DNA from: Bacilli bacterium
GTDB taxonomy: Bacteria; Bacillota_I; Bacilli_A; RFN20; CAG-826
NCBI GenBank assembly: GCA_016302065.1
Contig: JAEDOI010000001.1
Coordinates: 2,754 to 66,753, forward strand
Reading direction: 5' to 3'
DNA length: 64,000 nt
Numbering within the stretch: the first letter of the stretch is position 1; each line of letters opens with the position of its first letter. The notes under the pieces were generated by a model that worked only from the letters and a program-made list of their open reading frames with translations, had not been told where the DNA came from and made no database searches. Shown here piece after piece: positions 6,233 to 54,018 of this stretch. The position numbers and the translations under genes are program-made.

Positions 6233-8431
6233 ATGAAAAATAATTGGATTAAAAATAACATTAAAATTGATACATTACCTGAATTTAGAAAGGTTGTATC
6301 AATTAAGAAAAGGATTAAAAAAGCAATATTATTTGTTACGTGTATTGGCCTTTATGATGCTTATATTAATGGTAAACCTGTTACAAATTCAATGTTTAAA
6401 CCTGGTTATACTAATTATTATAAAAGAGTTCAATATCAAACTTATGATGTTACAAACAAAATGAAAGAAGGAGATAATAACTTTTCATTTTTACTTGCAA
6501 AAGGCTGGGCAAGTAGTGAACATTTTTCTTGGTGCAAACATCCTTATTATGATGATACATATTTAAATGTTGAAATAAGAATTGAATATCAAGATAAAAC
6601 TAAAGAAATTATTTATAGTGATGAAAGTTTCGATGTTTATACATCTAAAATTATTAGTAGTGAAATTTATGATGGAGAGGAACAAGATTTAAGAATTATT
6701 CCAAAATATGTTGGAAAAGCATCAAAATTTGACTTTAAAATTAGGATGGTTAAACAAGAAGGAGAAGAGGTTATAGAAGATGAAATTATTTATCCTCGAA
6801 ACATCTTTAATACTCCTAAAAATGAATTAATGATAGATTTTGGCCAAAATTTTACAGGCAATATTGTTTTTGAAATAGATGGAAAAGAAGGTGAAATTTT
6901 GTCTTTTTTACCAGCTGAAGTGTTAACAAAAGAAGGTAATTTTTATTTTGATAATTATCGTGATGCTAAATCTTATTTTAAATATACTTTAAAAAATGGA
7001 AAAAATATTCTAAGACCACTATTTTCTTTTCAAGGATTACGATATATAAAACTTGTTGATATTCCAAGTAATTTTGATATTTCATGTGTTAAAGGACATG
7101 TAATTCATTCTAGACTTGAAAGAACATGTTACTTTGATTGTGGTAATGAAAAAATTAATCAACTTTACCATAATATTATTTATGGTCAATTATCTAATTA
7201 CTTAGACATTCCTACAGATTGTCCTCAAAGAGATGAAAGGTTAGGATGGCTTGGAGATGCACAAGTTTTTGTTCGAACTGCTAGTATTAATTTTAATGTT
7301 AAAAAATTCTTCAAAAAATGGTTACATGATTTAAATTTAGGGCAACACGAAGATGGATCTGTAGAAGGTAGTGCACCTATTATTAAAAAGTCTGTAAGAG
7401 AAATTTCTTCTGGTTGGGGAGATGCTATCACAATTTGTCCTTATGAAATATATTTAGCATATGGAGATAAAAAAATATTAAAAGATAGTCTTCCACATAT
7501 GAAAAAATGGGTCGAATATATTAGAAATCAGGGAAGCAATGAATATTTATGGGACAGCGGATTCCATTTTGGTGATTGGGTTAGTTTAGATGCACCATAT
7601 GGTAGTTATATTGGTGCTACTGATGTTAGATTAATTGCTACTGCTTATTATGCAATTTCAACAAAGATTTTAGCTTCTACTTTAAAGATATTAGGCAAGG
7701 ATTCTACTGAATACGATAACTTATATGTAAATATTATTAATTCTTTTCAAGATAAATTCTTAAAAGATGGACTTCCTATAGGACAAAAAGCTATTGAAGG
7801 AAGTGCAAAAGAGCAAACAGGATATACTCAATGTGCTTTATCTTTAATTATCAATTTCGATTTAGGAAAAAAAGAAGATATTAAAAAACAAACCGATGCT
7901 TTAGTTGAACTTATTGAAATGAATGGCATGAGAATGACCACTGGATTTATCGGAACACCATATATTTTAAGAGCTTTAACTAAAGGTGGAAGAAGTGATA
8001 TTGCCTATAAATTATTATTGCAAGAAAAGGCACCATCATGGATTTATTCAATTAATAAAGGCGCTACTACAATGTGGGAACACTGGGATTGTATAAACGA
8101 TAAAGGGGAATTTTGGAGTCCTAATATGAATTCATTCAATCATTATGCTTATGGTAGTGTATTTGATTGGATTTTTAATTATGCTGCGGGGATTAACCCA
8201 CTTAAACCTGGTTATGAAGAAGTTCTTATTAAGCCTTATGTATCAAAAGATTTAGGGCATCTTGATGTAAAATATAAAACAAAATTTGGTTTATTATGTG
8301 TGAGATGGTATTTTCAAGATAATGCAACAATTTATGAAATTTCTATTCCTAAAGGAATTAAAGCTAGAGTTGAAATTAATAATAGTTGCTATAATTTAGA
8401 AGAAGGAAAATATATGTTTTCACATATTTAA
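6233..8431 (+). CDS. alpha-L-rhamnosidase (GH78), second copy
   Basis: DCPQRDERLGWLGDAQVF motif. Length is 732 aa. There is no signal peptide. Confidence 0.85.
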   Translation: MKNNWIKNNIKIDTLPEFRKVVSIKKRIKKAILFVTCIGLYDAYINGKPVTNSMFKPGYTNYYKRVQYQTYDVTNKMKEGDNNFSFLLAKGWASSEHFSWCKHPYYDDTYLNVEIRIEYQDKTKEIIYSDESFDVYTSKIISSEIYDGEEQDLRIIPKYVGKASKFDFKIRMVKQEGEEVIEDEIIYPRNIFNTPKNELMIDFGQNFTGNIVFEIDGKEGEILSFLPAEVLTKEGNFYFDNYRDAKSYFKYTLKNGKNILRPLFSFQGLRYIKLVDIPSNFDISCVKGHVIHSRLERTCYFDCGNEKINQLYHNIIYGQLSNYLDIPTDCPQRDERLGWLGDAQVFVRTASINFNVKKFFKKWLHDLNLGQHEDGSVEGSAPIIKKSVREISSGWGDAITICPYEIYLAYGDKKILKDSLPHMKKWVEYIRNQGSNEYLWDSGFHFGDWVSLDAPYGSYIGATDVRLIATAYYAISTKILASTLKILGKDSTEYDNLYVNIINSFQDKFLKDGLPIGQKAIEGSAKEQTGYTQCALSLIINFDLGKKEDIKKQTDALVELIEMNGMRMTTGFIGTPYILRALTKGGRSDIAYKLLLQEKAPSWIYSINKGATTMWEHWDCINDKGEFWSPNMNSFNHYAYGSVFDWIFNYAAGINPLKPGYEEVLIKPYVSKDLGHLDVKYKTKFGLLCVRWYFQDNATIYEISIPKGIKARVEINNSCYNLEEGKYMFSHI

Positions 8432-47181: not shown

Positions 47182-47277
47182 GTCAATATTTTAATGATAA
47201 TATGTAAAAAATACAAATAAAACAATAAGACAACAATGTTATTCTTTGATATAATTATATTAAACGGAGGAAATTTT

Positions 47278-48345
47278 ATGAAGAAATCATCAATTTTGTT
47301 ATTGGTAATTTCAATAACTGGATTATTATTGGGAAATATAGCTTCATTTTTAGCAATTAGTAAATTATATAATAATGATTTTAATATTTTACACATTGTA
47401 AATGATTTTAATTTTTCTAATTTAAGTTTTGTTACGTTAATAGCAGTTTTAGTTGCAACTTTTATTTGTGTGTTAATTCATTTAATTTTTGTTTGTATTA
47501 GAAAAAAACCTAAACATCTTGTTTTTACTTTTCTTGTGTTAATTGGTGGAATATGTAGTGCTTATACTCTTCCATTTACATTAATTAAAACTGTTGATTT
47601 TTTAGGAAATATTGAAGCAAATAAATCTGATTCTAACATTGTTAATGCTATTGCTTGTATTGGAACGGCTTTATGTTTAATTCTTGCCTTAATTTCTCTT
47701 GCTTTATCAATTTTATGTATGGGTAAAAAGAAAAAAGAAGTCAAAGTGGCCTTAGCAAAAACAAATAGTGAAACAATTATTCTTGGCTCTTCTAAAGATG
47801 AAAATTTAGTTGTTGCTGAAGAGAAAAAACCTGAAGTAGATGTTTCAAAGAAAGAAGAAGTTTTAAAAGATGAAACAGTTGAAACTAAAGTTGAATCAAA
47901 AGAAGAAATTAAGGAAGAGACAAAAGAAGAATTAATTAAAGATACTATTAAAGAAGAAAAAGAAGCAAAAAATGCTGAAGAAAAGAAAGAAGAATCTATA
48001 GTTGAAGAGGAAAAACCTGTTGCCCCTAAAAAGAAAGCACCAGCTAAAAAGAAAACAACAACATCAAAAGATGTTACAGATAAGAAAGGAACTGAAGTTA
48101 TGGAAAAAACAACTACTGAAAAAGAAGAAAAGAAAGCTTCAACTGCAAAAGCTTATCATGTTGTTAAAAGAAAAGAAGATAATAAGTGGACAGTTAAGTT
48201 AGCAAACGGAGACAAAGTTATTAAAACATTTGCAACTAAAGAAGAAGCTTTAGCTTATTCAAAGGGTTTAGCTGAAAGACAAAACGGAACTTTAAGAGTT
48301 CACGCTTCTAAAGGTAAATCAAAAGGTAAAATTCAAAAACAATAG
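47278..48345 (+). CDS. membrane protein (4 TM) with a K/E-rich linker and a C-terminal DUF2188-like domain
   Basis: The C-terminal YHVVKRKEDNKWTVKLANGDKVIKTFATKEEALAYSKGLAERQNGTLRVHASKGK resembles DUF2188 as I recall it. The low-complexity KE repeat linker is about 130 aa. Confidence 0.55.
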   Translation: MKKSSILLLVISITGLLLGNIASFLAISKLYNNDFNILHIVNDFNFSNLSFVTLIAVLVATFICVLIHLIFVCIRKKPKHLVFTFLVLIGGICSAYTLPFTLIKTVDFLGNIEANKSDSNIVNAIACIGTALCLILALISLALSILCMGKKKKEVKVALAKTNSETIILGSSKDENLVVAEEKKPEVDVSKKEEVLKDETVETKVESKEEIKEETKEELIKDTIKEEKEAKNAEEKKEESIVEEEKPVAPKKKAPAKKKTTTSKDVTDKKGTEVMEKTTTEKEEKKASTAKAYHVVKRKEDNKWTVKLANGDKVIKTFATKEEALAYSKGLAERQNGTLRVHASKGKSKGKIQKQ

Positions 48346-48449
48346 TAAAAACTATTATTTATTTATTTTTAGCAAATTTAGAGAAATTACAAATATTAAT
48401 AAAATTTTTCTTGCTAAAAATATTTTTCCTTGATATATTGTTTAAGCAC

Positions 48450-48525
48450 GGACCAGTGGTGTAGCGGTTAACATGTCGCTCTGTCACAGCGAAGATCGCG
48501 AGTTCGATTCTCGTCTGGTCCGCCA
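48450..48525 (+). tRNA. tRNA-Asp (GTC)
   Basis: Acceptor GGACCAG/CTGGTCC, anticodon stem TCGCT/AGCGA with loop CTGTCAC, T-loop TTCGATT, and an encoded CCA. Confidence 0.9.
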
Positions 48526-48565
48526 ACTTAAATTATTGAGGGTATTTACCTTTTTATATATAAGT

Positions 48566-48642
48566 GGCCCGGTAGCTCAGTTGGTAGTAGCGGAGGACTG
48601 AAAATCCTTATGTCGTGGGTCCGAGTCCCACTTGGGCCACCA
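48566..48642 (+). tRNA. tRNA-Phe (GAA)
   Basis: Acceptor GGCCCGG/TTGGGCC, anticodon loop CTGAAAA, T-arm GTGGG-TCCGAGT-CCCAC, and an encoded CCA. Confidence 0.9.
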
Positions 48643-48657
48643 TTTCTAGAGGTTATT

Positions 48658-48685
48658 CGCAATATTTGAAATATTGCGTTTTTTT
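48658..48685 (+). terminator. rho-independent terminator CGCAATATT-tg-AAATATTGCG followed by T7
   Basis: Perfect 9-bp stem plus T-run. A near-identical copy lies at 57181. Confidence 0.75.
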
Positions 48686-49627
48686 ATGCTTTTTTTTACA
48701 CTTTTTAAACATAAATTTTGAATTATCGGAAAATTTATTAATAATTATTAGTTCGAATAATGAGAAGTTCAAAATTTCTTTTTTCGCATAATGTAGTTGA
48801 AACCACGTATAGGTTTTTAGCAACAATTATGGGGCCGAGTTTTTTTGGACTAGTTTTTATTTGCTGTTGCAGATCCATATTTTGTCTTGAAAGTGGTGCA
48901 TCTTATTTTTAATTATGCTCTCCTTTAAATATAAATTGTGATGCTACAACTATGTTTTAAGTTATCATTACCAATAATAAAAAGTAGGTTATCTCTAGAA
49001 TGTGTGATAATGTGACAGAATAGTTTTCTGAATTTTATATTATTAGCGTTATTTCCTGTTGGCATTTCTTTTAATGCTTAGATGAATTTATCTGCTTTTT
49101 CATTAGGATTCATTTGTGTTAGTAATTTATTTGTAAAGCTTACTTTTTTGATAGTTTTTTATCAATTGTGCTCGTTTAGTTGCTTCTTTGAAATCTCAGT
49201 CATATTTGATATGGATTTAAGTGATTCTCTAGGTTTTTCTACTTCGCAATTTAATTTATTAATTTCTTCTTCTAACTTAGATTTATCTTTTGTAAATGTT
49301 TCTATAGGAGCTTATTCAAATATATAATAATCCGATTGATTTAAAACAAATTGATTATGAACAATTAATTGATAATGCGCTTTAAAGGTTAAGTATATTT
49401 CCTAAAGATAATCTATAAATTAATTTACTAAATATAGGTAATTTAATAATAATAATAATATTTGTATAATTTCATTATCAATAATAATGAATGTAGATTG
49501 AAATACCGTAGCAAAATAAAAAAAGGAAAAAGACTACGCCATTAGGAATTTTTTATGGCTTTTTATAAAGTTTAATTCGTCTATGGATGAAATTGTAAAT
49601 TTCAAAATTGGAAATGCATAAATAGCA

Positions 49628-49656
49628 TTGACAATTGCAAAAACGCAATTTATAAT
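49628..49656 (+). promoter_or_regulatory. consensus sigma70 promoter (TTGACA, 17 bp, TATAAT) with inverted repeat AATTGC-N5-GCAATT in the spacer; putative operator
   Basis: Both -35 and -10 hexamers match consensus exactly, and the spacer is 17 bp. The RBS AAAGGAG lies 13 nt before ATG 49692. Confidence 0.65.
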
Positions 49657-49691
49657 AGAATAGTAAAAAAATAGAAAGGAGAATTATTTAT

Positions 49692-50018
49692 ATGAATTGG
49701 AAAGAAAAAGTGAGTGAATTAATGACTACTAAAAATATAACTCAAAAGGATTTATCACGATTAAGCGGAATTACTGAAACGTCAATATCTAGATATCTAA
49801 ACGGGAGCCAAAGGCCTAGAATTGATGTTTTATTAAACTTTGCGAAAGCTCTAGATGTAAATGTTGAGTATTTATTAGAAGAAGAAAGATCTACTCAAGA
49901 ATCTAGTTTCACCACTATTGCAACAGCTATTGCAAGAAATGGAAGTAATTTAACTATAGAGGAGCAAAATAAATTAATCGCATTGATCCTTGGAAAGGGG
50001 AAAAGTGGCTGTAACTAA
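49692..50018 (+). CDS. XRE-family helix-turn-helix transcriptional regulator (ImmR/Cro-C1-like)
   Basis: HTH TQKDLSRLSGITETSISRYLNGSQRPRIDVLLNFAKALDV. Length is 108 aa. Confidence 0.8.
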   Translation: MNWKEKVSELMTTKNITQKDLSRLSGITETSISRYLNGSQRPRIDVLLNFAKALDVNVEYLLEEERSTQESSFTTIATAIARNGSNLTIEEQNKLIALILGKGKSGCN

Positions 50019-50541
50019 AAAAGATTATGAAGTTATGGATAAACTTGCTATTGATATCTATGTAGATTATGGCATTAGTTCTTTCCCGCTAGATATTTAT
50101 GATTTAGCTAAAAAGATGGGTGTTAAATTAATCAAATATTCATTATTTGATGATGTTCAAAGAGAACTTTTGCAAAAAAAATCTACTGATGGTTTTTTTG
50201 TAGATTCACCAAAGGGACCTCTTATTTTCTACAATGATTGTATAGAATATCAAGGAAAAATTAATTTAACTATTGCTCATGAATTAAAACACTTTATATG
50301 TAATGACGAAAAAGAAGATGAAGACAGCGAAAAACTTGCCGATCATTTTGGAAGATTTCTACTATGTCCAACCCCATATTTGATTTATTCTGGTATTGAT
50401 GATATCTATGAAATAATGGATATGTTTGGTTTGACTTATAGTGCAGCAATAAACGCACTTAATGCAAGTGAAAATAGAAAATATTATTATGGAAATAAAA
50501 TATTTGATTATGAAAAATCATTGGTAGATTTGTTTATATAA
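50005..50541 (+). CDS. ImmA/IrrE-family zinc metallopeptidase (DUF955-like)
   Basis: HEXXH motif HELKH. It overlaps the XRE gene. The GTG at 50005 is preceded by GGAAAGGGG, and other candidate starts lie at 49990 and 50038. Confidence 0.7.
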   Translation: MAVTKKDYEVMDKLAIDIYVDYGISSFPLDIYDLAKKMGVKLIKYSLFDDVQRELLQKKSTDGFFVDSPKGPLIFYNDCIEYQGKINLTIAHELKHFICNDEKEDEDSEKLADHFGRFLLCPTPYLIYSGIDDIYEIMDMFGLTYSAAINALNASENRKYYYGNKIFDYEKSLVDLFI

Positions 50542-50719
50542 AAAAACGCCCATTAAAATGAGCGCTCATCACGATATGTTAAATACCATGATCTGGACAA
50601 TTGTGATTTTAACATAAGCGTGATGATTTTGTCAAATAAACTAAAGGGAAGAACCCTTAGAAAGGAGATGAAATCGTTATGACAAAATTACAATTAGAAT
50701 TTCTTCTTTATGGTGGTTT

Positions 50720-51466
50720 ATGGTAAAGAAGAATAATCTTAAAAAATTTATAAACCTAAATTTTATTGATTTTACAAATCAGACTTATTTAATTGGCAAA
50801 TATGATTTGCCTTATGTTACATGTTCTGATTGTGTAAATCCAAATTATCTTGCTTTATATTCAGAATCTAATAATTATTTTAAGACTGAAAATACCTGTG
50901 TTTGTTTTTATCTTTATGATAATAAATTCGATGGTATTAAAGGTATTTATAACGCAATATATTATAAAGATGAGAAATTATTGGCAAAATATAAAGAAAG
51001 ATTTAAAGGTGTGAAATATGCTATCGCACCTGATTATTCACAATGTGGAGATATTCCTAGATTTGAAAATATTTATCGTTTGGCGAAATCTAGAATAGTA
51101 GCAAATTGGTTATTATTAGAGTGTGATGTTCTTGTCATTCCAAATGTAACATACGCTAATGAAAACTATTTTGATGTTATGCTCGATGGTATGGAAAACA
51201 CTGAGGTGGTAGCTTTTAGTGTAAAAGGATTGTTAAGAGAAACATCAGAAAAAGAATTGTTATTAAAGGCAATTCGATATACGGTAGATAATTTAAAATA
51301 TCTAAAGAAAATTATTGTCTATAGTGTTTCCACAAGTGATGAAAAAGTAATGTCGTTATTTGAATACGCATTATCTAAAGGAATTGAAATTATCATTCCA
51401 AATAATATTTTAAAAGAAAGAAATATTATTAATAAAAAGGTGGTGGTATCTAATGGGAAAGACTAG
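50720..51466 (+). CDS. DUF4417-like protein (assignment from memory, unverified)
   Basis: The blocks VCFYLYDNKFD, YAIAPDYSQCGDIP, IYRLAKSRIVANWLL and VLVIPNVTY match the pattern I recall for DUF4417 (FYxdDxkFe, PDFSxy, NxyRnR, ViPnvsW). Confidence 0.5.
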   Translation: MVKKNNLKKFINLNFIDFTNQTYLIGKYDLPYVTCSDCVNPNYLALYSESNNYFKTENTCVCFYLYDNKFDGIKGIYNAIYYKDEKLLAKYKERFKGVKYAIAPDYSQCGDIPRFENIYRLAKSRIVANWLLLECDVLVIPNVTYANENYFDVMLDGMENTEVVAFSVKGLLRETSEKELLLKAIRYTVDNLKYLKKIIVYSVSTSDEKVMSLFEYALSKGIEIIIPNNILKERNIINKKVVVSNGKD

Positions 51467-51920
51467 TAAAAGTGGATTAGGAGTTGGAACAGGAAGTTCA
51501 CCACAAGGAAGTTTATCACAAGGAAATGTTGATGCAAAAGTTAAAGAGTTAACAAAAAAATTGAAACCATTTGATTCTACCTTATTTAGTTATCAAGAAA
51601 GCATTCCTAAATACGAAGGTTATTTATTGAATTTAGATCATAGTATTGGAGGATCTAAGGCGAAATTTTTAAAAGAAGCTTTAGGGTATAAAACTGGTGA
51701 TGGATTTAAACTTCATATGGCAATTGGTCAAGCTATCAATGGTAAAATACCAAGTAAAGTTGAAACCACACCATTTGGAACAAAGTATAATTTTAATACT
51801 AAACTAAAAGGAAACGATGGGAAATATCATTCAACTAATGTAACTATAGTAGTGCAAAACGATAATGGAAAGACTACATGGAGAATAATCACTTTGACTC
51901 CAGGGAAAAAAGACAGATAG
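51453..51920 (+). CDS. hypothetical protein, DUF6883-like (assignment from memory, unverified)
   Basis: The central motif KYEGYLLNLDHSIGGSKAKFLKEALGY resembles the YLLNPxHPxGxxKAxxFxxALGF signature I associate with DUF6883. The N-terminus is Gly/Ser-rich. Confidence 0.4.
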   Translation: MGKTSKSGLGVGTGSSPQGSLSQGNVDAKVKELTKKLKPFDSTLFSYQESIPKYEGYLLNLDHSIGGSKAKFLKEALGYKTGDGFKLHMAIGQAINGKIPSKVETTPFGTKYNFNTKLKGNDGKYHSTNVTIVVQNDNGKTTWRIITLTPGKKDR

Positions 51921-51929
51921 GAGGACTTT

Positions 51930-52139
51930 ATGAACGAATTGGATTGTGTAAAATTAATTAAACCTTTTAAAGGGTTAAAAGTAGGAACAAAAGGGTGTAT
52001 TGTATTGAAATATACTGAAAATGATTTTGAAGTAGAGTTTTTCGACGAAAATGATGAAACAATAGATGTTTATACAATTTCAAGAGAATATCTAGAGGTT
52101 TATTGGACACCAAAGGATGGATATTTGAACAAAAATTAA
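51930..52139 (+). CDS. DUF4926-like small protein (assignment from memory, unverified)
   Basis: The 69-aa sequence DCVKLIKPFKGLKVGTKGCIVLKYTENDFEVEFFDENDETIDVYTI fits the D.V.L...L.G...G.VV..Y...YEVEF.DE.G pattern I recall for DUF4926. Confidence 0.45.
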   Translation: MNELDCVKLIKPFKGLKVGTKGCIVLKYTENDFEVEFFDENDETIDVYTISREYLEVYWTPKDGYLNKN

Positions 52140-52390
52140 AACTGTTTTATTTGTTGAATGATATATTAGTTGTGTTTTAGTAAACATTCTTATTGAAAAT
52201 ATTAATTATTTGTTTCCTTATCTAAATAAAATAAAAAATGTAGTAATATTCCAATCCCACCTGACGTAATTGGTGGATATATAAATAAGAAATGATTTTA
52301 TATATAATGAAGCGCATTTTAATATTACAAAAACATAATTAAGTGATTTATTACATTTTTAAAACTATTTTTAACAAGAATATATGTTAA

Positions 52391-53140
52391 TTAATGATTA
52401 AGATTCTTTTCTTTAATGATTAATTCTGGTTTAGATAATATTACCTTTGTATTATCTTTAACTGAATCAACTAAAAAGACATTACTACCAATTGTAACAT
52501 TATTTCCAATTACAACATCTCCTCCAAGAATGGAAGCTCCTGAATAAATGGTTACATAGTTTCCAATTGTAGGGTGTCTTTTAGTGTTACTTAATTTATG
52601 ACCTAAAGCAAGAGATAATCCGCCAAGTGTAACGCCTTGATAAATTTTAACGTGGTGCCCAATAATACTTGTTTCTCCAATTACAATACCAGTTCCATGA
52701 TCTATGAAGAAATATTCACCAATTTTAGCGCCAGGATGAATGTCTATTCCTGTTAAATTGTGTGCTTCTTCTCCAATGAATCTTGCGATAATTTTTTTGT
52801 TTTGATTATATAAGATGTGGGCAATTCGATGGTAGTAATTAGCTTTAAATCCAGGATAAGTTAAAATAATTTCTTCAATAGAATCTGCAGCTGGATCGGA
52901 ATCAAAAGTAAATTGTAAATCCTTTTGCAATGTATCTTTTAATTTATCTAATTCATTAAAAAAATATGTTATATCCTGCTTATTTTTTGATACTTCTTTT
53001 TTATATAGCGCCTTAGCTTTATATTTTGATATAAATACAGGTGTTGATGAAAAACAGTTAGGAAATAATATGTTTTTTAGATTTTTAATAAATTTTTTTA
53101 TTTTTTTATTTCTTGGTAAATTTTTAATATTGTATCCCAT
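52391..53140 (-). CDS. cysE: serine O-acetyltransferase
   Basis: Left-handed beta-helix hexapeptide repeats (DIHPGAKIGEYFFIDHGTGIVIGETSIIG) and an N-terminal SATase helical domain. Confidence 0.8.
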   Translation of the reverse strand: MGYNIKNLPRNKKIKKFIKNLKNILFPNCFSSTPVFISKYKAKALYKKEVSKNKQDITYFFNELDKLKDTLQKDLQFTFDSDPAADSIEEIILTYPGFKANYYHRIAHILYNQNKKIIARFIGEEAHNLTGIDIHPGAKIGEYFFIDHGTGIVIGETSIIGHHVKIYQGVTLGGLSLALGHKLSNTKRHPTIGNYVTIYSGASILGGDVVIGNNVTIGSNVFLVDSVKDNTKVILSKPELIIKEKNLNH

Positions 53141-53313
53141 AATAGCTTTCCTTTTTGCTTATTTATTATAATCTAATAAACTTAATATTAATACAAAAAC
53201 GATCTTTCATTTTTCAAGTAAACATAATCTTTACTACTTTTATTACGAAAATAAGTTTAATTATCAATAATTAAGTTGTAAAATATTAAAAGTTAAAAAG
53301 GAGTTTATTTTCA

Positions 53314-54018
53314 ATGGGAAGACATTTTGAAGTAAGAGCTGCAGCAATGGCTGCCACTGCAAAGCAAAAGAGCGCTATTTATATGCGTGCAAGTAAAGAA
53401 ATTTATATGGCAGCAAAAAGAGGCGTTCCTGATCCTAATTCAAATTTAGCATTAAGATCAGCTATTGATAAATATAGAAAATCCTGTCCAAGAGATGTTA
53501 TTGATAGAGCAATTAAAAAAGCTCAAGGTGGAGATGCTGAAAACTACATTGAGGGTTCCTATGAAGCATTTGGTCCAGCTGGAACATTACTTATTGTTGA
53601 TACATTAACTGATAATTCAAATAGAGCTTTAGTAAGTGTTAGAACTATTATAACTAGAAAAGGTGGACACTTAGGAAGTGTTGGATACAATTTTGAAAAT
53701 GCTGGTTTATTCGATTTTAATTATTCTGGAACTGAAGAAAGTTTAGAAGAAGCTTTAGTTTTAGGTGATGTTGATGTTAAGGAAATTTCATTAGAAGATG
53801 GGGTTGCTGAAGTTGTTGTAAGTCCAAGTGATTTTGAAAAAGCTAAAGAAATTCTTAAAGATATTGGTGTAAATGATTTTGAAGTTTCTCAAATTACAAA
53901 GATTGCTAATGAAACCGTTAAGCTCGAAGGTGAAGAATTAACAAAATTTAAAGAATTGTTGTCTTTACTTGATGAATGTGAAGACGTTCAAGCTGTTTAT
54001 CACAACGTAGATTTATAA
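53314..54018 (+). CDS. yebC: YebC/PmpR-family DNA-binding regulatory protein
   Basis: The N-terminus GRHFEVRAAAMAATAKQK..AAKRGVPDPNSNLALRSAIDK is characteristic. Length is 234 aa. Confidence 0.85.
   Translation: MGRHFEVRAAAMAATAKQKSAIYMRASKEIYMAAKRGVPDPNSNLALRSAIDKYRKSCPRDVIDRAIKKAQGGDAENYIEGSYEAFGPAGTLLIVDTLTDNSNRALVSVRTIITRKGGHLGSVGYNFENAGLFDFNYSGTEESLEEALVLGDVDVKEISLEDGVAEVVVSPSDFEKAKEILKDIGVNDFEVSQITKIANETVKLEGEELTKFKELLSLLDECEDVQAVYHNVDL

Follow-up and report, generated by a model that had tools for sequence, protein, structure and literature searches.

An XRE/ImmA-associated DUF4417 unit of gut bacteria as a probable polymorphic RNase toxin-immunity cassette with exchangeable blocks

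We analyzed a 64,000-nucleotide (nt) stretch of DNA from a Bacilli bacterium of the CAG-826 lineage (assembly GCA_016302065.1, contig JAEDOI010000001.1, positions 2,754 to 66,753; hereafter the window) and, within it, a five-gene unit at 49,628–52,139 encoding an XRE-family repressor, an ImmA/IrrE-type metallopeptidase and three proteins that match DUF4417, DUF6883 and DUF4926. The unit is probably a conflict cassette that is derepressed by ImmA, deploys a polymorphic ribonuclease (RNase) toxin together with its immunity protein, consists of three independently recombining blocks and has its toxin dock on the DUF4417 protein. The first block would be a switch, formed by the XRE repressor acting on a palindrome in its own promoter and the ImmA-type metalloprotease. 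The second would run from a conserved leader region through the DUF4417 protein, which is predicted to be a triosephosphate isomerase (TIM) barrel, into the next gene as far as codon ~35. The third would be a replaceable pair, in the window a DUF6883 toxin C-terminal domain and the DUF4926 protein that confers immunity to it. Below we document family memberships, folds (as models), gene order, co-variation, breakpoints and proteins in which DUF4417 is fused to an immunity domain; from these we infer the role of DUF4417 and the biological purpose of the unit.

A genome scan with a DUF4417 alignment as its seed yielded 80 loci, nearly all of them from the gut or rumen, to which open reading frame (ORF) calling and iterative profile searches were then applied. 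The hosts were Bacilli/Erysipelotrichaceae/Anaeroplasma-like (Mollicutes-like) bacteria, Clostridia, Veillonellaceae, Fibrobacter, Bacteroidales, Coriobacteriia, Bifidobacteriaceae (Pseudoscardovia) and Treponema. An XRE gene and an ImmA-like gene with HEXXH were located upstream and on the same strand in 50 of the 67 loci with enough flanking sequence, either as separate genes or fused in one protein of ~350–380 residues. The initial annotation had called the XRE/ImmA pair orphaned. Its frequent presence upstream of the homologues makes this the wrong word, as the pair is integral to a conserved unit and is not a relic of an integrative and conjugative element (ICE) or prophage. One related locus, L007, has the same five-gene order as the window in another chromosomal context, beside a resolvase and a D12 methylase/EcoRI pair.

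Two features of the unit were overlooked in the initial annotation. The DUF4417 protein (248 residues; 50,720–51,466, plus strand), which matched the Pfam family at 3e-21 and was modeled as an enzyme-like TIM barrel, is, as judged from the aligned loci, the conserved core of the unit. The gene that follows it (51,453–51,920) overlaps it by 14 nt and encodes a 155-residue protein containing GYLLNLDHSIGGSKAKFLKEALGY; on the same comparisons this protein is a polymorphic toxin in two parts, the N-terminal one being a conserved peptide. The peptide, residues 1–35 (MGKTSKSGLGVGTGSSPQGSLSQGNVDAKVKELTK; 51,453–51,557, plus strand), is a module common to all toxin types. Among database matches the first ~36 residues were ~90% identical in proteins with unrelated C-termini, and across phyla the motif M-x(3-5)-SGLxxGTxGSPQxS(L/I)EQxxYxxKVxE always opened the gene after DUF4417. 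This peptide was disordered in the AlphaFold2 model. It matched no Pfam family and contained no recognizable trafficking domain, and a protein database search with toxin residues 1–40 returned two fragments only. A small ORF with the leader peptide abutted or overlapped the DUF4417 stop codon in 64 of 74 loci, typically by 4–20 nt. A programmed frameshift fusing DUF4417 to the toxin was considered and rejected, as the overlaps vary (4, 8, 11, 14, 17 and 20 nt) with no constant frame relation. In Fibrobacter intestinalis ATCC 43854 (L053, 4975–6489) the gene after DUF4417 also opens with the leader peptide and encodes 505 residues, which may represent a multi-domain toxin or a fusion.

The remainder of the window toxin (51,558–51,920, plus strand) is a DUF6883 domain (3.4e-10, 40.6 bits, cut-off 27) predicted to be a BECR-fold RNase. 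Its model has helices followed by a four-stranded meander sheet, and the nearest solved structure was the tRNase CdiA-CT of Klebsiella pneumoniae 342. Conserved positions that are candidates for catalysis are K53, Y57, K69, H63/H88, Q135 and T147. The cognate immunity protein, of 69 residues (51,930–52,139, plus strand; DUF4926 at 7e-13), starts 9 nt past the toxin stop. The gene order and this spacing were as the initial annotation described, and the three DUF assignments, together with HTH_3 and Peptidase_M78 for the regulators, all scored above the Pfam gathering scores. The statement that no function was established for any of the three cargo families needs correcting for two of them. This is because a 2026 preprint (bioRxiv 10.64898/2026.08.28.747851) assigns DUF6883 to the BECR RNases as family BECR-Tox3, with DUF4926 as its likely immunity protein, and also describes proteins in which DUF6883 is fused C-terminally to Phage_Mu_F. 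The window has this pair of Pfam families in the same order, but its toxin is a stand-alone protein of 155 residues with the shared N-terminal peptide, and neither it nor its neighbors matched Phage_Mu_F.

The toxins of related loci were 135–205 residues long, and all of their identifiable C-terminal domains were of RNase type: in a set of 65 proteins, 13 had DUF6883, eight PBECR1, seven EndoU_bacteria and two Ntox50, the remainder being of unknown types. The C-termini formed 12 clusters, of which the six with multiple members paired one-to-one with clusters of the downstream gene (14, 12, 9, 7, 5 and 3 loci). Only L034 apparently departs from the pairing, having a T0 toxin and a downstream protein in a cluster of its own. 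DUF4926 was observed after every DUF6883-type toxin and after no other type, and DUF7674 was a second recognizable immunity family. The earlier suggestion that DUF6883 and DUF4926 form a toxin/immunity pair is therefore supported by the co-variation of C-terminus and downstream gene, by the BECR fold and by orphan DUF4926 copies left after displacement (described below). A canonical type II toxin-antitoxin system was rejected as a description of the pair, given that the immunity gene lies downstream, its product has no DNA-binding domain (Pfam detected DUF4926 only) and a separate XRE protein regulates.

Comparison of the window with its closest relatives by blastn revealed the boundaries of the blocks. 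Identity to L012 and L007 was ~90.5% from 49,500 to 51,557–51,560, i.e., up to about toxin codon 35, after which the sequences were unrelated; the breakpoints were located at 51,557–51,561 and at 51,927, where homology resumed at the start of DUF4926 (98% in L012). These positions show that a foreign toxin C-terminus with its immunity gene replaced the DUF6883 part and orphaned DUF4926. Orphan DUF4926 copies, whole, fused or truncated, were observed in L012, L014, L015 and L007, and they include fragments of 35–59 residues. In the L012 copy (6414–6839; 141 residues in total) the reading frame continues into a C-terminal part resembling an MNT nucleotidyltransferase by eye. Homology between the window and L013–L015 begins exactly at 50,542, just past the ImmA stop codon, which shows that the XRE/ImmA pair is itself an exchangeable block.

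This organization resembles that of polymorphic toxin systems (CdiA-CT/CdiI, Rhs, LXG and MuF, in the concept of Zhang and Aravind), in which a constant N-terminus precedes interchangeable toxin C-termini, the immunity gene lies downstream, and displacement of cassettes leaves orphan immunity genes. However, the constant part here is only ~35 residues long with no recognizable trafficking domain, an N-terminal Phage_Mu_F domain like that of MuF phage toxins is absent, and a separate, translationally coupled TIM-barrel DUF4417 protein takes part with no linked secretion system. The unit further differs from those systems in its XRE/ImmA switch and in that all identifiable toxin domains are RNases.

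A close connection between DUF4417 and the toxin-immunity pair is indicated by several fusions. In P0234 and P0262, DUF4417 is preceded by an N-terminal DUF4926 domain that is 51% identical (E 3e-19) to a bona fide immunity protein. In P0229 and P0241 an I0 domain, the immunity type of PBECR1-type toxins, is joined to DUF4417, and an overlapping PBECR1-like toxin gene precedes each. In P0254, DUF4417 is followed by two I0 domains. Since DUF4417 has been fused to two unrelated immunity families, the fusions argue for a DUF4417-toxin-immunity ternary complex. Moreover, a conserved disordered peptide would be expected to need a conserved partner, and as DUF4417 is the only invariant protein in the block of the peptide, it is the likely candidate. 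From the translational coupling, this invariance and the fusions, we infer a physical link between DUF4417 and the toxin-immunity pair.

We hypothesize that the repressor keeps the operon nearly silent and that, upon a signal of the DNA-damage or infection type, ImmA would cut the repressor in the manner of ImmR/ImmA and CapH/CapP, both of which have been reported to respond to DNA damage. The DUF4417 protein, the toxin and the immunity protein would then be made together via coupled translation, and the disordered N-terminal peptide would dock the RNase on DUF4417 to give a DUF4417-toxin-immunity complex. In that complex DUF4417, possibly an enzyme that recognizes nucleic acids or nucleobases, would set when or where the RNase acts. 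The purpose is most likely intracellular conflict (phage defense of the abortive-infection type, or addiction) rather than secretion, because no secretion signal was found in any of the proteins and the hosts have very different envelopes.

The proteins and promoter of the switch are consistent with this. The XRE-family helix-turn-helix repressor (108 residues; 49,692–50,018, plus strand) matched HTH_3 at 4.1e-13 (49.6 bits, cut-off 23) and the PADLOC model capH at 3e-14, and its gene has a Shine-Dalgarno (SD) sequence, AGGAG, 8 nt upstream. As the initial annotation read it, this gene is overlapped by that of an ImmA/IrrE-type zinc metallopeptidase (50,005–50,541, plus strand), which is 178 residues long from the GTG at 50,005 or 183 residues from a TTG at 49,990. 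The peptidase matched Peptidase_M78 (1.9e-7, 31.3 bits, cut-off 22) and the metallo-protease family phrog_87 (1e-15), and its HEXXH motif is intact (HELKH at 50,278–50,292, residues 92–96). Both genes run in the direction of the cargo genes. An HTH repressor gene followed by an overlapping M78 HEXXH peptidase gene is an arrangement shared with ImmR/ImmA (from ICEBs1 and phage phi105), CapH/CapP (from the cyclic oligonucleotide-based antiphage signaling system, CBASS) and DdrO/IrrE. In those systems the operator is in the repressor's own promoter and the pair controls a potentially lethal operon, as is proposed here. The cargo here is not an excision module, nor does it correspond to a known defense system. 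The pair could not be assigned to the CBASS-type CapH/CapP regulators in particular, as the match to PADLOC capP (5e-9) covered profile positions 6–114 of 242 only, and CapH/CapP reportedly diverge from the operon under their control, unlike the co-directional regulators of the window. The protease also differs from CapP in being short, with only the peptidase half of the profile and no GAF-like C-terminal domain.

The promoter P1 (49,628–49,656, plus strand), with TTGACA at 49,628–49,633, a 17-nt spacer and TATAAT at 49,651–49,656, has the 12/12 consensus match previously noted. It was the sole perfect match in a promoter scan of 48,300–53,400, an interval in which promoter-like sites were no more numerous than in shuffled sequences. 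An operator-like inverted repeat (49,633–49,650) was indeed present inside its spacer, with a spacing of N6 (AATTGC-N6-GCAATT) and not N5 as first described; a better reading is AATTGCA-AAAA-CGCAATT, a 7-4-7 arrangement with one inner mismatch. The repeat was unique in the window at 0 mismatches. At up to two mismatches the motif was no commoner than chance there, so the weight of the proposed operator rests on comparative data. In L012 the promoter has a perfect palindrome, AATTGCA-AAAA-TGCAATT, and in L007 the palindrome is ATTGCG-AAAA-CGCAAT; in both, the -35/spacer/-10 layout is kept and the palindrome is preserved by symmetric changes. Loci with a different XRE have another palindrome, TTTCCA-AAA-TGGAAA, in the same spacer between -35 and -10. 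These comparisons lend support to the P1 palindrome as an XRE operator, and this swapping of the palindrome with XRE type at one promoter position favors the autoregulated layout that had been proposed.

The gap between ImmA and DUF4417 (50,542–50,719), typically 105–350 nt among related loci, appears to be a regulatory spacer that moves with DUF4417, having 83% identity over seven loci even where the upstream ImmA differs. A 15-codon leader ORF (MTKLQLEFLLYGGLW; 50,679–50,726, plus strand) with a strong SD has a stop codon that overlaps the ATG of DUF4417, a gene with no well-spaced SD of its own. The leader ORF is kept as MTKSQ.FLLYGGLW in the window, L007, L012–L016 and L018–L023, all of them Bacilli-type loci, and a long plus-strand hairpin is predicted to cover its SD and AUG. 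A conserved minus-strand promoter (TTGACA-18-TAAAAT; 50,635 to 50,606) was also found, and a predicted hairpin at 50,544–50,567 is terminator-like on the minus strand only. Together, the promoter and the hairpin with its U-run ~60 nt further on predict an antisense RNA of ~60 nt between ImmA and DUF4417 (50,540–50,635), which is conserved in six related loci with nearly no covariation. Overall, covariation in the gap was too sparse to prove any of its four elements. An Rfam search of 48,300–52,500 returned two tRNAs only, and a match to sau-6072 at 50,540–50,591 was not significant (E 0.32).

Several observations weigh against our interpretation of the unit. The P1 operator was looked for in the gap and was absent, and the gap is unchanged where the XRE type changes, so control of the cargo by XRE would need putative read-through from P1. 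The initial annotation had proposed a candidate defense module, a role that is possible; in a PADLOC check of the window only the regulators matched, to capH- and capP-like models, and the DUF4417, toxin and immunity proteins gave no match at E ≤ 0.1, so that the three cargo proteins correspond to no model of PADLOC-DB v2. The 150 proteins in the flanks of related loci represent 152 Pfam families, a heterogeneous and mostly housekeeping set in which defense and mobile genes are only modestly enriched; those present at a modest level were AAA_14/DUF4143, ResIII, a Schlafen-like helicase, TnpV, methylases and integrases. The toxin and immunity genes share one operon, and their co-induction would be explained by release or delivery, as with colicins and MuF toxins, as readily as by abortive infection or more so. 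Lastly, L098 (3502–7002), a toxin-less locus, has a Fic gene, a stand-alone I0 gene, the P0254 gene and another I0 gene, and its four I0 immunity domains with DUF4417 resemble the poly-immunity loci of intercellular toxins.

The last two points favor an alternative in which the unit makes a damage-induced toxin for other cells. The neutralized complex would leave by lysis or in phage or phage-like particles, with DUF4417 and the N-terminal peptide as a loading or delivery adaptor and the immunity genes protecting kin. We regard this as fairly unlikely. Particle delivery would not depend on envelope type, and DUF6883, PBECR1 and EndoU come from a pool of domains that are fused to phage MuF or polyvalent proteins. 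Phage DUF4417 proteins, which are distant (~25% identity), have terminase genes in their vicinity or carry a fused ParB-like domain. In Streptococcus phage A25, however, the gene after DUF4417 has neither the leader-peptide motif nor a toxin domain, so the phage clade cannot be assumed to work alike. The DUF4417 subfamily was present on only three of 2.9 million viral contigs, compared to 82 matches in genomes. Two of the three (L093 and L094) represent one Bacteroidales prophage, in which the unit has an EndoU toxin and lies near terminase and portal genes; on the third the unit is beside two large serine recombinases. Most loci have no nearby phage structural genes, no secretion genes were found among the 150 flanking proteins, and the unit has no lysis or secretion genes. 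The toxins are tiny and have no receptor-binding or translocation domain, and the orphan DUF4926 copies are decaying rather than being maintained. RNase colicin operons (E3, E5 and D; SOS-induced), in which damage induces a BECR-type RNase along with a tightly paired immunity protein, offer a likeness for such a role, but colicins have receptor-binding and translocation domains and a lysis gene, and they are plasmid-borne and controlled by LexA where the unit is chromosomal and has XRE/ImmA.

A second alternative, which we consider very improbable, is that DUF4417 acts independently as a base exchanger or glycosylase on DNA or tRNA, similar to DpdA and tRNA-guanine transglycosylases (TGTs), with the toxin-immunity pair as an addiction module and the peptide mainly a landing pad for recombination. 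The solved structures closest to the DUF4417 model were TIM barrels of the TGT/DpdA group, with a modest structural score. DUF4417 has many invariant acidic and polar residues, and the phage ParB-DUF4417 fusions parallel DpdB, a ParB-like protein that works with the TGT-like DpdA. The prophage of L093 (15,300–19,059) and L094 (17,500–20,645) also encodes QueE-, QueC-, QueD- and FolE-like proteins and a possible DpdA, recognized by eye from their N-termini; this 7-deazaguanine DNA-modification set lies a few kilobases from DUF4417 and may be a coincidence, belonging to one phage lineage. No deazaguanine or other precursor genes were present in the window or in most loci. A search of PDB sequences with the DUF4417 A1 profile detected no TGT even at E ≤ 10, and on the 248-residue protein Pfam detected DUF4417 and no TGT family. 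The N-terminal peptide is conserved as protein across phyla where DNA identity is gone, which indicates that it is constrained as a peptide and not only as a recombination site. An independent role for DUF4417 is also difficult to reconcile with its near-universal translational coupling to the toxin and its repeated fusion to immunity domains.

The setting of the unit in the window could suggest that the XRE/ImmA pair is a leftover of a decayed prophage or ICE and that the three other genes are unrelated passengers, an explanation we find hardly credible. Next upstream of the unit are tRNA-Asp and tRNA-Phe (48,450–48,642), and it is preceded by ~1 kb (48,643–49,627) with no ORF longer than 81 residues on either strand, a T-rich plus strand and stops in all six frames; ImmR/ImmA pairs are typical of ICEs and prophages, and serine recombinases are located near L092 and L007. 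However, that ~1 kb contained no integrase remnant or recognizable gene relic, only short repeats at chance level were found when att-like repeats of the tRNA-Phe end were sought, and G+C is ~28% throughout, with no compositional island. The previous statement that no integrase or excisionase lies near the unit held up, and integrases accounted for two of the 150 flanking proteins. The same five-gene order was observed in dozens of unrelated chromosomal contexts and in several phyla, and this synteny, as far as the sequence comparisons go, largely refutes a leftover. On its other side the unit is bounded by housekeeping genes (hexapeptide acetyltransferase-like, YebC and ribosomal L13/S9), and identical copies with the same flanks were present in short metagenome contigs. 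Upstream of the tRNA pair (47,236–48,345) is a gene for a 369-residue Lys/Glu-rich protein with N-terminal membrane-like segments and a C-terminal DUF2188 (Pfam match, identical contig), a domain that has been linked to defense operons and to CapH/CapP-like regulators.

Having weighed these alternatives, we return to the reading of the unit as an ImmA-derepressed cassette and to how DUF4417 might act in it. DUF4417 comprises 804 members, a few of them long, in a profile search of 1.84 billion representatives, or ~800 clusters at 50% identity, and PHROGs assigns it to phage families, one of them a "nuclease" family in which it corresponds to the C-terminal half. Searches of PDB sequences with the DUF4417 and toxin profiles returned nothing usable, and a viral fold search in BFVD gave unnamed matches only. 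A possible model is offered by type IV CBASS, in which the TGT-family protein Cap10 binds the nucleobase-modified N-terminus of its partner CdnD. By analogy, DUF4417 might be an enzyme or receptor of transglycosylase ancestry that binds, and may also chemically modify, the N-terminal peptide of whichever RNase the cassette carries, and that releases or aims the RNase on sensing a nucleic acid or nucleobase related to infection or damage. We put this forward as a doubtful, distinctly unlikely proposal. The likeness of DUF4417 to TGTs lies in a modest structural score, and the unit differs from Cap10-CdnD in having no QueC-like Cap9 partner and in having an RNase, not a cyclase, as its effector.

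The DUF6883/DUF4926 pairing had already been proposed in the preprint, and XRE/ImmA switches are well known. The combination of a DUF4417 partner, a 35-residue peptide, a three-block architecture with XRE/ImmA and DUF4417-immunity fusions appears to be undescribed. A full-text literature search, which covers few subscription journals, found no link between DUF4417 and a toxin among the papers listed, a term search of the preprint returned no DUF4417, XRE or Peptidase_M78, and the shared N-terminal peptide did not occur in the passages of the preprint that were retrieved.

DUF4417 is common in phages and gut bacteria, and these data are the first to place it in a concrete functional setting, that of a partner which stays constant while the polymorphic RNase toxin beside it varies. 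They also delineate a toxin family that is defined by a constant peptide of 35 residues rather than by a secretion domain and that spans gut and rumen Bacillota, Bacteroidota, Fibrobacterota, Actinomycetota and Spirochaetota. At 2.5 kb, the copy in the window is small enough for direct testing. If DUF4417 is a sensor, carrier or activator, the unit would represent a compact, modular means of deploying an RNase upon a damage or infection signal, as well as a simple model of toxin-cassette exchange. If DUF4417 proves to work in the Cap10-like way outlined above, the unit would stand for a class of inducible immune or conflict systems that is new and widespread in gut bacteria and has three parts, including an effector that can be swapped and an inhibitor that is built in.

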